A stretch of 64,000 nucleotides of DNA from Eledone cirrhosa (taxonomy: Eukaryota). The stretch is taken from contig OZ024763.1 in NCBI GenBank assembly GCA_964016885.1, forward strand, positions 13,702,001-13,766,000, given 5' to 3'. The position numbers were made by a program, and so were the translations under genes. This document shows, piece after piece, positions 1,838 through 60,962 of this stretch. The first letter of the stretch is position 1. Every line of letters starts with the position of its first letter. The notes beneath the pieces are model-generated. The model searched no databases. It saw only the letters and a list, made by a program, of their open reading frames with translations, and was not told the DNA's origin.

Positions 1838-2012
1838 ACGAAAGAATTGTGGTAAGGAACCAGATGGACCATAATGTACCAAAGTACTCAATACTTAGAG
1901 TAGTAGAGTGGGTAATAGGAACAAGTATGATCCCGACGGCAGAGCTCAAGCCGTTTCGACGGCTATTTCAGTCCAGAAATTTGAGCTCAGCCGTCGGGGT
2001 CCTACTCGTTCC
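1838..2012. mobile_element. (TA)n-embedded fold-back element, 'ggtaaggaacc' family (also 2586-2815, 24331-24487, 26808-26958, 57646-57850, 60557-60747; related 29375-29507)
   Basis: Repeated ~170-230 bp unit with a unique arm containing aagtactc and an inverted duplication of ggaac..gaccccgacggctgagctcaagccgtttcgac. Confidence 0.8.
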
Positions 2013-3525
2013 TATATATATATATATATATATATATTAATATTGTGATTATAAAGACGGTGATAATTGTGGTAGTGGTGATGGTATTGATTGAGGTTTG
2101 GTGTTGTTAGTAGTGGTGGTAGTGATTGTGGTGGTAATCGTTGTGATGTAGTGATTGTGGTAAAGTGCTGCTGTTAGAGGTGGAAGTGGTACTAATGCTG
2201 TTGAGGTCGTTTTCTACCATAATTCCCACCACCATCACAACACAGAATAAAGTTTTATTAGCACGCACTCGCATGTACACACACACACATACAGACATAT
2301 TGAAACATTCAAACACGTGCGCGCACACACACGCACGTATTGAAATATACACACATGCACACACACACACACACATTGAAATATACAAACGTGCGCGTAC
2401 ACACACATTGAAACATACAAACGGGCGCACACATACAGACATGCGCATACATACACATATTGAAACATACCAACGTGCGCGCACACACACTGAAACATAC
2501 AAACGTGCACGCACATACACATACAAAAACGTATTGTGCCCCTATCCAAGCTACACACGCACACCCTTGTTTATATATATATATAACGAAGGAAATGTGG
2601 TAAGGAACCAGGTGGACCATAACGCACCAAAGTACTCAATACTTAGGGTAGTAGAGAGGGTAATAGGAACGAGTAGGACCCCGACGGCTGAGCTCAAGCC
2701 GTTTCGACGGCTAATTCTGGACTAAAAAAAAATTAAAAAAAAATTTTTTTTTTTAGTCCAGAATTAGCCGTCGAAACGGCTTGAGCTCAGCCGTCGGGGT
2801 CCTACTCGTTCCTATTATATATATATATATATATATATATATATATATATATATATGACTATATATATATATATATATATATATATATATGACTCTGAAT
2901 TTGCGTTACGTTTCGCTTTTACTACCCGTCGAAATATATATATATATATATATTAAAATAACAGATTAAAGTTTAAGCAAAGAATCGCCGCTTTCACCCT
3001 TAACGGGGTCTTCTGAAACTAACCCCGTTAAGGGTGAAAGCAGCGATTCTTTGCTTAAACTTTAATCTGTTATTTTAATAAATATTTGCTCTACGGTTCT
3101 TATATATTTGATATATATTTATCCTTATCGAGCCCTCTTTGGATTTTAGTCTTCAAATTTATCATTATTACTCTCTCTCTCTCTCTCTCTCTCTCTCTCT
3201 ATATATATATATATATATATATACACACACACACACATAAGTACACACACATATATGTGTGTGTATGTGTGTATTCACGCAATACAGTAATTCTTATCCC
3301 CAGGGCGTCTATCCATGCTTTCAGAACTACTCTTGTAATAAGATATGTACACATGTACATAAATATACACACATACATCTTCACACAAACACGCATACAC
3401 GCACGCTCATATACAGTCATATATACGCAGGCATGGTTGTGGTGGTTAAGGTGTTCACTCTGTAACCAGGGGTTTTTGGGTTCATTCCCTCAGCGTGGCA
3501 CCTAATATATATATATATATATATA

Positions 3526-3968
3526 CGATATATTAACAAATGGAAACTATATTTATAAAACCATATTTATTTCATTATACATATTTCAAGGACACCAAGT
3601 CATATTATGGTGCGCTTTCATCAGATAAAATATAATATAGAGCAGTTTTATAAATAAATATTGACATACCCTTAAAGAATGTGACCATTTCTATTGGAAG
3701 CTCCCGGATTTCCAACAGAAATGGTCGCATTCTTTTAAGGGTATGTCAATATTTGTTTATAAAACTGCTCTATATTATATTTTATCCGATGAAAGCGCAC
3801 CATAATTTGACTTGGTGTCCTTGAAATATGTATAATGAAATAAATATGGTTTTATAAATAGTTTCCATTTGTTAATATATTGTATTTTTACTCCAATAAT
3901 TTGTTGAGTGCTTTATATCAGTTATAAAAATATTTGCTTGTTGTATCCCAACAATTTAAATATAACTT
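3526..3968. mobile_element. (TA)n-embedded fold-back element, family A (also 4400-4800, 24085-24290, 36648-37063, 38132-38515, 41048-41423, 56917-57328)
   Basis: ~160-bp inverted arms with hammerhead motifs, plus a unique arm carrying gagtgct. Confidence 0.85.
3571..3630 (-). ncRNA. Type I hammerhead ribozyme motif
   Basis: TTTTAT CTGATGA AAGCGCACCA-loop-TGGTGTCCTT GAAA TATGTA TAATGAA. The + copy at 3780-3840 has CCGATGA. Confidence 0.7.
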
Positions 3969-4034
3969 CTCTCTCTCTCTCTCTCTCTCTCTCTCTCTCT
4001 CTCTCTCTATATATATATATATATATATATATAT

Positions 4035-4383
4035 ATTTAAAGGTTAAACAAGGTTCAATGAATAAATCAAAGAATGAGTTTTACAATAGATTGGAAGCAC
4101 TCAACAAGAATGGTTTTCCGGAGTTATTAATATTAATTCAAAATATTAACAAAAATAGACATTCGTGTGATCAAGTATATTTTATTATACATATTTCAGA
4201 GGTACTGAGCTATCTTCAACAGTACGTCCTCATCAGATAAAATAAGATGATGCATGACATACTCTGACATAGTAGATGGTTAAGATTCAGCCATGTTGAA
4301 GATAGCTCAGTACCTCTGAAATATGTATAATAAAATATACTTGATCACACGAATGTCTATTTTTGTTAATATTTTGAATTAAT
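4035..4383. mobile_element. (TA)n-embedded fold-back element, family B (also 6430-6572, 29045-29375, 30055-30460, 60821-61105)
   Basis: Shared unique arm ..ttttacaatagatt..aagcactc..; inverted segment; hammerhead motif. Confidence 0.85.
4180..4243 (-). ncRNA. Type I hammerhead ribozyme motif
   Basis: ATTTTAT CTGATGA GGACGTACTG-loop-CAGTACCTCT GAAA TATGTA TAATAAAAT. Confidence 0.75.
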
Positions 4384-4694
4384 ATATATATATATATATA
4401 TTGAAAGTTATATTTAAATTGTTGGGTTACAACTAGTAAATATTTATAACTGATATAAAAGCACTCAACAAGTATTTGGAGTATATTTACGATATTAAAT
4501 AAATGGAAACTATATTTATAAAACCATATTTATTTCACTATATATATTTCAGGGATATCATATTAACAATATGTTATGCCTTCTTCAGACAAAATACAAT
4601 ATAGACAAAATACAATATAGACAACTTTTTCAAATACAAGTCGATGTTGAACGGTATGTCAAATCTATTTATCTATAAAACTGTCTATATTGTA

Positions 4695-58600: not shown

Positions 58601-59349
58601 ATACAATTGGGGAGTTTACATACAAGGTGTGTAAAAATGTATAACAAAAATAATGAATAAAACAAACGAAATCCCCAATAGGCGGGGGAGGCGTTACAAA
58701 TGGGTTGCACACACTCCGAAAAAATGTACAACCCTCATCTCCAGGAGCACAAAGAGCGAGCACTCCTCTCCTCTCTTCCTCTTCTTCCTCAACCTACAGG
58801 TTTATATAGAGAGAAGGCCCAACCACTCGGGATATCCTTGCCACATTCACCCCACCTTTCGTAAAACTTGCTGGGGTGCAGTACCTCTCTCTCTCCACTC
58901 TGAATCTTCTTCTGAAATGGTATTTGAAGAAGCGAACCAGTTGTTCGCCGGAGAGAAAGGCGTCTGACCTCAGCCCTTTCAGTCTCGTCCACCATATAGC
59001 CTCTTTCACCATAGCCATTTACACAGAGGAAAACCACTTCTCCTTCGTTTTTGAAGGAAGGTGGCGGTTTGATCGCAATAATGGACTCGGTGGTCAACCG
59101 GATTTGTCCCACCCGCGACAGTAGTCGTTCTGCGTAGCTCCACAGAGATAGACAGTGTCAGCAATTGGAAAGACCAATGGAAACATTGTTTCCTCGGTCC
59201 GAGTTGACAATCGACTGTCGATATATATATATATATATATATATATATATATATATATGTATGTAAGAGGTAAACAGAAATAACAACACAATCAGTGCAG
59301 TATATGGAAGGGATATATTAGGTTAACACTTGATATAGCAAGAAGAGGG

Positions 59350-59385
59350 TCTTAACGTTTCGGACGCTAGTCCTTCATCAGAAGA
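59350..59385 (-). ncRNA. Minimal hammerhead motif (Penelope-type)
   Basis: TCTT CTGATGA A GGAC-tagc-GTCC GAAACGTT AAGA: 4-bp stem I, 4-bp stem II, palindromic AACGTT. Confidence 0.8.
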
Positions 59386-59949
59386 AAGAATGAGAAATAA
59401 AATAGATTGAGGGGACGGGCGGGTTGGATGGAATTGGAAAAAATGTCTTTAGATAAAAATAACAGGTCTATTCATGTTGACATCTCTTAATGTGTATGTA
59501 TATATATAATGTGTTTATATATAGATATATTATATATATATATATATAATATATATATATATATATATATATATATAAATATATATAATATATATATATC
59601 ATCATCATCGTTTAACGTCCATTTTCCACGCTAGCATGGATATATATATGTATATATATATATTATATATATATATATATATATATATATATATATATAT
59701 ATATATATATATATATATATATTATATATATTATATATATATATATATAATATATATATATATTATATATATTATATATATATATATATAATATATATAT
59801 ATATTATATATATATATTATATATATAATATATATATATATTATATATATATATTATATATATAATATATATATATATATATATATTATATATATATATA
59901 TAATATATATATATATATATATATACACACATTATATATATATGTATAT

Positions 59950-60490
59950 GGTTCCGTTGTGAGCGCTTTCCCAATGTGTGCAAGGTACAGCACGGCCATC
60001 TGACGAGACTTCTCTCATAATGGATCCACCCAACCCCAAAATTACGGTTCCGATGTGAGCAGATTGTGGTGCGGGCAACTGGCCAGACACTCTTCATAAC
60101 ACCAACCTCATTTTACAGTGTCACACTGTAAAATGAGGTTGGTGTTAGGAAGGGCATCCAGCTGTAGAAATCATGCCAGAATCAGTTCCCGTCCCACCCT
60201 TGCAAGCAGGGAAAGGCGGACGTAAAATGAAATGAAAAATGAAAACGATGATATTATCATCGTTTTTCATCATTTTACGTCCACTTTTCCCTGCTTCCAA
60301 GGGTGGGACGGGAACTGATTCTGGCTTGATTTCTACAGCTGGATGCCCTTCCTAACACCAACCTCATTTACAGTGAGTGCTGGGTGCTTTTTTGCCGTGG
60401 CACCTCCACGACCACTTTGCAGTGGAATTATAGGAACCCCAGTCCCTATCATTTCATTTATACAGCTGAGTAAACTGGAGCAATGTTAAC
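59950..60490. mobile_element. Rearranged, inverted RTE-3'UTR and SINE fragments
   Basis: 60125-60255 is inverted against 60255-60375; hairpin at 60096-60150. Confidence 0.7.
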
Positions 60491-60962
60491 CACTAAGCCA
60501 TGTGCCTCCATATATATGTGTATATATATATATATATATATATATATATATATATAATGAAGGAAATGTGGTAAGGAACCAGGTGGACCATAACGCACCA
60601 AAGTACTCAAAACTTGGGTTAGTAGAGTGGGTAATAGGAACAAGTAAGACCCCGACGGCTGAGCTCAAGCCGTTTCGACGGCTAATTCTGTACAGAATTA
60701 GCCGTCGAAACGGCTTGAGCTCAGCCGTCGGGGTCTTACTTGTTCCTATATATATATATATATATAGAGCCCAATGCTCTAACCACTAAGCCATGTGCCT
60801 CCATATATATATATATATATAACCAAAGTTTAATATGGTTCAATGATTACTCAATGAATATAGTTTTACAATAGATTAAAAGCACTCTACAGGAAAGTTT
60901 TCTGGAGTTATTAACATTCAGAATATTAATAAATGAAGACATTCACATAATCAAAATATATG

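Follow-up and report, generated by a model that had tools for sequence, protein, structure and literature searches.

The motif RAGYRCTC recurs near (TA)n junctions of repeat families in a 64,000-nt stretch of the Eledone cirrhosa contig OZ024763.1 (hereafter the window), and it is probably the 3′ half of a cis-acting RNA hairpin, shared by Hydra-clade Penelope-like elements (PLEs) and by short copies borrowing their enzyme, that would be bound by this enzyme and would set internal starts of reverse transcription. The hairpin occurs twice, each time a few bases beyond a point at which DNA copies of the elements begin, and is for this reason probably a signal for where the enzyme starts copying. 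No earlier description of the hairpin or the motif was found in the literature searched.

All 18 RAGYRCTC 8-mers listed in the initial annotation were confirmed. Their reported distance of 30–65 nt from (TA)n held for 17 of them (30–61 nt; for 3906 and 6920 the reference point is a (TC)n or (AC)n run adjoining the (TA)n) and failed for 27165, which lies 72 nt away. Furthermore, eight exact sites (24435, 26852, 38450, 38786, 41106, 56976, 57799 and 60880) and four variant sites (3130, 27329, 45079 and 57940) were found. The carrier families had been called otherwise unrelated, which is mostly true, except that families B (4459) and C (4095) align and were therefore counted as one. Families with a ribozyme have the motif 3′ of the hammerhead, as had been noted, and on the hammerhead strand. 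On this strand it forms the 3′ half of a bulged hairpin reading 5′-NCUC, an upper stem of at least 3 variable bp, a loop, a 2-nt bulge UH, GAGN and a single-stranded RCUN-3′. The features of the window are:

1882..1909, minus strand: family A hairpin and motif, ACTC arm, GAGTACTT; long arm of fold-back 1838-2012
2630..2657, minus strand: family A hairpin and motif, first arm base mutated; fold-back 2586-2812
3088..3137, plus strand: family M variant with GCTC arm, GAGCCCTC; (TC)n(TA)n 33 nt away; fold-back 2954-3199
3584..3624, minus strand: minimal type I hammerhead core in the shorter arm of fold-back 3526-3968 (family B)
3890..3913, plus strand: family B hairpin and motif, GAGTGCTT
4095..4124, minus strand: family C hairpin and motif; fold-back 4037-4381
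4194..4236, minus strand: hammerhead core upstream of the 4095 hairpin
4459..4482, minus strand: family B hairpin and motif; fold-back 4402-4799; inner end class 7 nt beyond the arm (about 4490)
4899..4942, minus strand: family G motif GAGTGCTC, distant GCTC arm, G-U closing pair, weak upper stem; fold-back 4862-5196
5023..5038, minus strand: family G short hammerhead-like core, non-canonical CTGATCA
5321..5345, minus strand: family D hairpin and motif, GCTC arm, GAGCACTC; fold-back 5289-5642
5397..5434, minus strand: family D hammerhead core
6484..6512, plus strand: family C hairpin and motif
6647..6670, minus strand: family F hairpin and motif, ATTC arm with U-G wobble, 1-nt bulge; fold-back 6611-6827
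6760..6782, plus strand: hammerhead core, family F short arm
6920..6948, minus strand: family H hairpin and motif, 6-bp upper stem
9476..9500, plus strand: family D-related hairpin and motif, GAGCACTC; 33 nt from a short CA/TA run
9579..9618, minus strand: family E hairpin and motif; long-stem-II hammerhead begins at 9746 (minus strand)
23585..23624, minus strand: family E hairpin and motif, weak upper stem; fold-back 23555-23711
24207..24230, plus strand: family B hairpin and motif, downstream of a hammerhead at 24100
24415..24442, plus strand: family A hairpin and motif; fold-back 24331-24486
26852..26879, minus strand: family A hairpin and motif; fold-back 26808-26957
27142..27172, plus strand: family J hairpin and motif, GCTC arm, GAGCGCTT; 72 nt from TA
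27329..27358, minus strand: family J relative, GCTC arm, GAGCCCTT; 68 nt from TA
30113..30141, minus strand: family C hairpin and motif; fold-back start 30055
38434..38457, plus strand: family B hairpin and motif; fold-back 38133-38516
38786..38809, minus strand: family L (A-like) hairpin and motif; copy from 1 nt before the arm to 39 nt past the motif
38871..38890, minus strand: family I motif, short ACTC hairpin (arm possibly junction microhomology); fused to a LINE 3′ fragment
41106..41129, minus strand: family B hairpin and motif; fold-back 41042-41424
45079..45116, minus strand: family S variant with TCTC arm, GAGAGCTT, closing pair U-A; (CA)n(TA)n 35 nt away; hammerhead 45250 (minus strand) upstream
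56976..56998, minus strand: family B hairpin and motif; fold-back 56916-57327
57779..57806, plus strand: family A hairpin and motif; fold-back 57647-57854
57940..57970, minus strand: family K variant, GAGTGCTA, 3-nt bulge; 73 nt from TA
58452..58508, minus strand: candidate degenerate second hairpin in the family K tandem copy, suggestive only; 7 nt past the outer end, two consensus mismatches
60601..60628, minus strand: family A hairpin and motif; fold-back 60557-60746
60880..60908, minus strand: family C hairpin and motif, downstream of hammerhead 61018 (minus strand)

In the window, the motif was found at 25–70 nt in 22 of 155 TA-block flanks and in 8 of 96 family representatives, with no occurrence at 0–24 nt and two at 71–92 nt, and shuffling resulted in a mean of 0.26 and a maximum of 3 in 1000 shuffles. 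The positional enrichment at TA junctions is borderline with a look-elsewhere correction over all 96 families, because in 10 of 52 shuffles one or another degenerate 8-mer equaled or exceeded the score of RAGYRCTC (8.4). The best real degenerate 8-mer, RAGYWCTC (9.2), was reached by none of the 52. RAGYRCTC was the top de novo motif in 8 of 10 tails picked solely for being fold-back elements, a count reached by 0 of 424 shuffles; without family C it was found in 7 of 9 tails (reached by 0 of 441 shuffles).

The hairpin is supported by covariation in its upper stem. With a 2-nt bulge, 93 of 114 positions are Watson-Crick paired, some of the rows tested being related to each other, compared to a shuffle mean of 41.6 (reached in 0 of 20,000 shuffles). 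The excess is seen in the window alone (32 of 45 vs. 18.0 shuffled), in the Hydra loci (61 of 69 vs. 25.2) and with one element per cluster (33 of 42 vs. 16.4). With bulges of 0, 1, 3 or 4 nt, upper-stem pairing is at chance. The closing pair (n = 38) is G-C in 27, A-U in nine, G-U in one and U-A in one case, the A-U pairs belonging to nine window families. A hairpin arose by chance around a planted motif in 62 of 5000 trials, compared to 21 of 46 real GAGYRCT sites, and it is formed on one strand only. The fourth base of the motif follows the distant arm, and any base (C, T, A, G) occurs at the last position. The stability of single hairpins is not out of the ordinary (z from 0.19 to −1.72), upper stems are weak in families E, G, I and M, and the 5′ arms were left unaligned by MAFFT.

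The window carriers are non-autonomous Penelope-like copies inserted in (TA)n, most of them fold-backs. Each of the 17 fold-backs examined has one long and one short arm, which fits an inverted 5′-truncated copy with a one-end tail. Minimal type I hammerhead cores were predicted in families B, C, D, E, F, G and S; family A has, by eye, only the 3′ half of a hammerhead, no core was found in the window copies of families H, I, J, K, L and M, and an Rfam search resulted in no match at the gathering score. No PLE ORF was detected among the 145 of 243 complex reading frames scanned against Pfam, where the only reverse transcriptase (RT) is a LINE-type frame (62316-63998). The window families are therefore tied to the Hydra clade only by motif, hammerhead type and target. 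A coding remnant was ruled out as the source of the motif, since frames differ between families and a stop codon often precedes it (by eye).

For autonomous elements, 26 loci were retrieved by Hydra endonuclease alignment, i.e., by protein alone and blind to the motif. Seven of these reach an intact 3′ tail, and all seven tails contain the GCTC-hairpin-GAGCRCTN unit, so that the motif does occur in tails of autonomous PLEs. Copies belonging to these families end directly before the hairpin. The 5′ UTRs carry two hairpin copies 38–40 nt apart, the leader being ordered as hammerhead, about 50–60 nt, hairpin 1, 38–40 nt, hairpin 2, 17–24 nt and ATG. [quoted passage not shown]

In five genomes from hosts other than the window species (G001-G005), GAGCRCT with TA was found at 25 places in two genomes, 23 of them with a GCTC arm (scrambled control: 1). 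A hammerhead followed by TA 111–141 nt later occurs at 17 places, of which 15 are the motif places and two belong to another hammerhead subtype. The two-unit pattern was found at four places in four of the five genomes, all directly before a Hydra ORF (control: 1). Hammerhead ends of the GAAACG type carry the motif in 0 of 13 cases (12 short ends and one long tail behind a Neptune-like endonuclease, by eye). Among the published Hydra consensuses, 4 of 6 contain hairpin and motif (PMC8557442, file S7); Hydra-1_Obim has no clear hairpin copy and in Hydra-1_Amil both ends are absent. Five exact 8-mers showed no excess outside Hydra in the PMC8557442 supplement. The GAGC form of the window matches the autonomous Hydra-clade form, and the family D form (GCTC arm, GAGCACTC) is that seen in Hydra-clade PLEs of the same supplement. 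For the ACTC/GAGT form, the commonest in the window, no autonomous carrier was found, and in G001-G005 it is no commoner than a reversed control. A pattern scan of metagenome contigs resulted in 112 loci, mostly chance, with a hammerhead core upstream in 3 of 113 matches; only L005, L008, L082 and L094, on the strand opposite to the search, were informative. Pattern and protein scans of viral contigs yielded no matches. The Hydra protein monomer model (pLDDT 92.6), uninformative on RNA binding, has a predicted fold closest to DRT2 and TERT, with low TM-scores of 0.28–0.37 over the query.

Genomic copies end at two sites, an inner one 4–10 nt 5′ of hairpin 1 and an outer one 4–8 nt 5′ of hairpin 2. 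The PLE tail therefore reaches from one site to the other and includes hairpin 1 alone, and this explains the position of the motif a few tens of nucleotides inside the (TA)n junction. In 15 of 17 window fold-backs the inner junction precedes hairpin 1 by 6–10 nt, a family C copy with its junction set 11 nt short being left out of the 15, and in family G the inner end and the arm are 22 nt apart. It is to the 5′ arm, and not to the motif, that the spacing is constant; the distance to the motif varies from 22 to 39 nt. Outer junctions were located 4–8 nt before hairpin 2 in the two families with both forms recovered. Hairpin 2 is tied to the outer end only in these two genomic families and one published consensus, and in the window only in one degenerate case. 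Outer distances are more widely spread in the window (30–73 nt) than in the Hydra loci (28–40 nt). Junctions share 0–6 nt of microhomology with TA, which could help to choose the site.

The initial annotation had proposed a cis signal for the mobilizing RT/endonuclease, and the recurrence in autonomous Hydra PLEs together with the fixed relation to both end classes argues for it. The RT-GIY-YIG protein would bind the stem base, the bulge and RCUN and would nick the (TA)n DNA, and reverse transcription would start internally, just 5′ of the hairpin held by the protein. Less firmly, two protein copies on two hairpins might prime from the two target strands, resulting in fold-backs with one inner and one outer end. 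Tentatively, and at somewhat less than an even chance, we propose that the two identical hairpins are twin docking sites, so that a pair of enzymes on one RNA primes both (TA)n strands, each 4–10 nt 5′ of its own hairpin, with the downstream enzyme displacing the first cDNA.

It is unlikely that the hairpin instead marks RNA processing, with cuts by a host nuclease or by the element itself 4–10 nt 5′ of each hairpin and with the new 3′ ends as starts of ordinary target-primed reverse transcription. The hairpin has a GCUC/GAGC stem followed by R-C-U in common with the tRNA D-arm and Pol III A-box, and tRNA G10 lies 9 nt from the tRNA 5′ end. The basal stem and RCU of the Hydra hairpin resemble this arm, the GCTC..GAGCRCT pattern also picks up D-arm-like sequences (by eye), and in some cases the 5′ end falls at these cut sites (L166, L229, Hydra-1_Ajap and Hydra-1_Crog), although a circular or tandem template also predicts shared 5′ and 3′ sites. 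Unlike the D-arm, the hairpin lacks A14, the D-loop GG, a B-box and an acceptor stem, and an upper stem and bulge replace the D loop: A14 was found in 0 of 38, GG in 2 of 38 and a 7-bp acceptor-like stem in 2 of 38 cases, and ARAGORN made three weak calls in 21 sequences, none on the hairpin. Cutting is further disfavored by the A-U closing pair of nine window families and by the anole element, which starts internally with protein purified from E. coli (PMC11167929).

The core promoter that had been suggested as the other role of the motif, an internal element read as DNA with the inner site as transcription start, is weakened to the point of being very unlikely. According to the sections of PMC2377424 considered, the internal promoter of Drosophila Penelope includes a DPE and the element's 34-bp repeat gets a basal-promoter score, and full-length Hydra copies begin just before a hairpin; however, the motif differs from the DPE given there (RGACGTGY), A-box and B-box are each present in 0 of 38 cases, one-strand compensatory pairing and a fixed bulge are unneeded in a DNA promoter, the spacing is constant to the 5′ arm rather than to the motif, and the 3′ junctions would be left unexplained. 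The missing boxes, together with the lack of an ARAGORN call on the hairpin, also ruled out a tRNA-derived SINE or Pol III type 2 element.

A free 8-mer or palindromic DNA site was rejected, half of the motif being the stem of a covarying one-strand RNA hairpin, and RNA dimerization via the palindrome was ruled out as GAGCACUC is not self-complementary. Also very unlikely is a quasi-palindromic double-stranded site by which the GIY-YIG endonuclease would home into existing copies: GAGYRCTC is near-palindromic, and recognition by the D. virilis endonuclease depended on the tail (as reported in PMC11167929), but the free last base and the arm-following fourth base break the palindrome, and 4 of 5 palindromic sites beside a tract have the hairpin only in the TA-facing orientation, the fifth in neither. 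Least credible is a service in translation, RNA stability or hammerhead folding with ends set by TA-rich microhomology alone, for which the position of hairpin 2 (17–24 nt before ATG), the 2–6 nt often shared by junctions with (TA)n and the protein help needed by the anole hammerhead (PMC11167929) could be cited, since hairpin 1 is kept in non-coding families and families E and F have the same spacing with junctions of 0–1 nt microhomology.

A start signal in the RNA would bear on PLE RNA recognition, the one-end tail and the formation of inversions, as a covarying element tied to both end classes in a whole clade from several animal hosts. The hairpin gives exact mutations for in vitro work and a marker of sequence and structure by which abundant (TA)n repeats without classification could be assigned to their mobilizer, and is possibly a programmable internal start signal for a telomerase-related RT. 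If twin docking is true, one rule would yield the PLE tail, head-to-head inversions with an inner and an outer end, and unit-length copies, and a portable signal of ~30 nt would set the start of such an RT inside any RNA.

In the R2 3′ UTR, the telomerase template-boundary stem and hepadnavirus epsilon, a structured RNA bound by the RT fixes the start or stop of copying. In contrast to these, there are two copies of the Hydra element, and copying would begin internally in the RNA, on the 5′ side of the element. In PAc, a Poseidon element of Anolis, the tail is bounded by two internal sites at which the RT starts (Frangieh et al., 2024, PMC11167929); cutting and extension take place on both DNA strands, the RNA 3′ of the starts is required and a dimer is predicted. 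PAc belongs to a different clade and its starts lie inside the ORF in an AC-rich stem-loop, its printed template has, by eye, no GAGYRCTN in the tail, and the study of this one active system left the binding motif undefined (PMC11167929). Animal non-LTR retrozymes, as presented in the main-text parts considered of PMC7229834 and bioRxiv 10.64898/2026.07.22.740005, are like the window copies short non-autonomous hammerhead-bearing derivatives of PLE pseudo-LTRs, and no shared non-ribozyme motif is given there. They are tandem units by definition, whereas the window copies, which show the (TA)n insertion preference, are mostly single fold-backs in (TA)n or single tails; in family K, the sole tandem carrier, no hammerhead was found. 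With the Hydra-clade C-terminal EN+ PLEs (Craig et al., 2021, PMC8557442), in whose text, as far as considered, no tail motif or hairpin is described, the window copies have in common the (TA)n target, the near-3′ hammerhead, the one-end tail and the inverted truncated copy. Unlike the autonomous Hydra set, they are non-coding, and most have the A-U closing pair, which was not seen in that set.

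The window is animal DNA rich in repeats, and the RAGYRCTC motif is carried in it by copies that reach a length of about 450 nt, are bounded by (TA)n tracts and are mostly fold-backs. Their minimal type I hammerheads sit on the strand whose 3′ end points toward the (TA)n tract, and no ORF of a Penelope-like element (PLE) was found in the 145 of 243 complex window frames that were scanned. The carriers are of a known kind, namely non-autonomous PLE derivatives. In sequencing reads, the carrier families are abundant and present also in two other organisms. In run X8, 5,267 reads join (TA)n at the inner insertion end of family B, i.e., the end just 5′ of the first hairpin described below (reported at 4482, depth about 9,200); this is not a copy count because the data are reduced-representation.

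All 18 motif sites of the initial annotation were recovered at their positions, and eight exact and four variant sites were added. The proposed spacing of 30–65 nt from the microsatellite holds for 17 of the 18 (30–61 nt), while site 27165 lies at 72 nt. The carriers had been described as otherwise unrelated; families B and C were counted as one because they align. For positional enrichment, the 155 TA-block flanks of the window were collapsed to 96 families. The motif occurs at 25–70 nt in eight of the 96 representatives, against a shuffle mean of 0.26 and a maximum of 3 (1000 shuffles). Correcting for the post hoc choice of the motif, an equally good degenerate 8-mer was found in 10 of 52 shuffles, and the enrichment is then only borderline. 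In ten tails chosen solely by their fold-back character, RAGYRCTC was the best de novo motif (8/10), a number reached in none of 424 shuffles; with family C left out, it was found in seven of nine tails (0/441 shuffles).

Read as RNA on the hammerhead strand, the motif is the 3′ half of a hairpin composed of NCUC, an upper stem, a loop, a 2-nt bulge UH, GAGN and RCUN. Across 38 elements, G-C (27) is the most frequent closing pair, followed by A-U (9), G-U (1) and U-A (1); the U-A variant at 45079 was discovered via its hammerhead, independently of the motif. An exact arm is present at 28 of 30 window sites compared to 5–11% of windows by chance. The 5′ arms were found through complementarity, a choice that does not enter the test of the upper stem: with a 2-nt bulge, 93 of 114 positions pair in rows that are partly related to each other (shuffle mean 41.6; 0 of 20,000 shuffles as high), and with other bulge sizes pairing is at chance. 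Window elements only give 32/45 versus 18.0 by shuffle, and one element per cluster gives 33/42 versus 16.4. Two further window sequences touch on this structure:

14924 (−): GAGTGCTT with a wobble hairpin, 167 nt from a microsatellite; either chance or a decayed copy
28620–28700: relative of family G with CAGTGCTT and a possible ACTG arm, adjoining a short TA run; uncertain as a further compensatory change

Searching the PMC8557442 supplement for the motif led to consensuses of Hydra, a clade of EN+ PLEs. The motif lies in the 3′ tail of Hydra-2_Amil and Hydra-2_Ajap and twice in the 5′ leader of Hydra-1_Ajap, and Hydra-1_Crog carries a compensated GCCC/GGGC version of the hairpin. No clear copy was found in the Hydra-1_Obim consensus, and both ends are absent from that of Hydra-1_Amil. 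A motif-blind search with the Hydra endonuclease alignment yielded 26 loci in host DNA within bacterial genome bins. The check proposed for the motif in 3′ tails of autonomous PLEs was positive for these Hydra loci: in all seven intact tails the hairpin lies 30–39 nt from the end. Six loci have too little DNA, seven end at the inner site (L119, L120, L129, L130, L131, L136, L137) and six lack the motif (L114, L117, L124, L128, L135, L138); in L117, an inversion falls inside the hairpin. The animal host DNA in the five bins (G001–G005) includes near-complete PLEs (loci L113–L138), and G001 is rich in such contigs.

GAGCRCT followed by TA was found at 25 places in two of the five genomes, 23 of them with a GCTC-type arm, and at one place with the scrambled pattern. 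Hammerheads lie 111–141 nt before TA at 17 places, of which 15 are motif places. The tails after Hydra-type hammerheads, in a comparison set that includes loci retrieved by the motif, form a short class without the hairpin and a long class (108–128 nt) with it. The hairpin was absent from all 13 ends with the other hammerhead subtype, only one of which is long. The ACTC/GAGT form shows no excess over the control in G001–G005. The GAGU families of the window likely belong to the Hydra clade.

A pattern search for two hairpin units gave four places in four of the five genomes, each 17–24 nt upstream of the ATG of a Hydra ORF. The full order, seen in L227 and L228, is upstream endonuclease, hammerhead, hairpin 1, 38–39 nt, hairpin 2 and ATG; both hairpins also occur in the short non-coding elements L008, L082 and L094. 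Inner junctions lie 4–10 nt 5′ of hairpin 1, and the outer (TA)n junction lies 4–8 nt 5′ of hairpin 2 in the two families with both forms recovered. Of 17 window fold-backs, which represent six families, 15 have their inner junction 6–10 nt 5′ of the arm; fold-back C3 is not among the 15, and family G is an exception at 22 nt. The distance from junction to motif varies from 22 to 39 nt. A tandem copy of family K runs on for 7 nt, followed by what may be a degenerate second hairpin. The Hydra-1_Crog consensus by eye begins 6 nt before its 5′ hairpin and stops 41 nt past a different 3′ hairpin, which fits an outer-to-outer unit. All 17 fold-backs examined consist of one long arm with the motif and one short arm ending before it. 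Two long ends were not seen in any of the 26 self-inverted window segments, and two such segments within 29028–29506 have no long end at all.

Mini-elements of about 230 nt bounded by (TA)n (L008:1960-2190, L166, L082, L094) carry one or both hairpins, with a hammerhead in L008 and L166; they resemble unit-length copies derived from circular RNA. Other window features are the following:

23955–24046, 28905–28995, 44935–45013, 38645–38740, 59259–59360: (TA)n tails without GAGYRCT, a second tail class
5740–5830 (−), 51890–51990 (+): homologous stretches with GAGTGCTT and GAGTACTC at conserved positions
45700–45912: fold-back flanked by (TAA)n, not (TA)n, motif absent
27528–27836, 30467–30575: fold-back family N, hammerhead-like core variant, no motif seen in the tail
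62316–63998 (−): reading frame of a LINE reverse transcriptase, matching RVT_1 and PHD
52052–52411 (+): frame resembling a host-gene CUB-domain exon by eye, no Pfam match

The five tails of the second class share RAGYGTKA with TAATA within a few bases after it, and four of them lie downstream of hammerheads, most of which belong to the GAAACG type. RAGYGTKA resembles the Penelope DPE (RGACGTGY) and, together with TAATA, may serve a different PLE clade as its signal. The two homologous stretches are without the hairpin, lie 73–140 nt from TA and have one frame that by eye resembles the N-terminus of Hydra-1_Obim. 3′ fragments of LINEs similar to the frame at 62316–63998 are dispersed across the window.

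In target-primed insertion, the 3′ junction marks the point where reverse transcription started. In the simplest reading, the Hydra protein probably binds each hairpin and starts copying just 5′ of it. One RNA with two hairpins and two proteins would then give fold-backs with one inner and one outer end; that two proteins per RNA account for this pairing is put forward tentatively. Alternatively, the hairpin could be a site of RNA processing that mimics the D-arm of a tRNA. The hairpin pattern also retrieves D-arm-like sequences, but neither A14 nor a B-box was found in any of the 38 elements. Further alternatives are an internal promoter (cf. PMC2377424), a role of the hairpin in translation or folding, and a DNA site for the endonuclease. 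Binding of the Hydra protein to both hairpins is preferred here.

In the mainly open-access literature searched, including text of PMC11167929, bioRxiv 10.64898/2026.07.22.740005, PMC8557442, PMC7229834, PMC4209133 and PMC2377424, neither the motif nor the hairpin was found described; the PMC11167929 supplements searched gave no match. PLE tails and dual reverse transcription starts are already known, while a doubled covarying hairpin at a fixed distance from both classes of ends appears undescribed. It makes a direct test possible of how PLE tails and inversions arise.

For the Poseidon element of the anole, PMC11167929 describes a tail delimited by two internal reverse transcription starts, extension of both DNA strands and a need for RNA 3′ of the start sites. 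In the template printed there, a stem-loop that has a bulge on its 3′ side can be made out by eye; it begins a few bases downstream of the +111–118 start, within the region needed for activity. This stem-loop and the Hydra hairpin possibly share the same geometry with another sequence.
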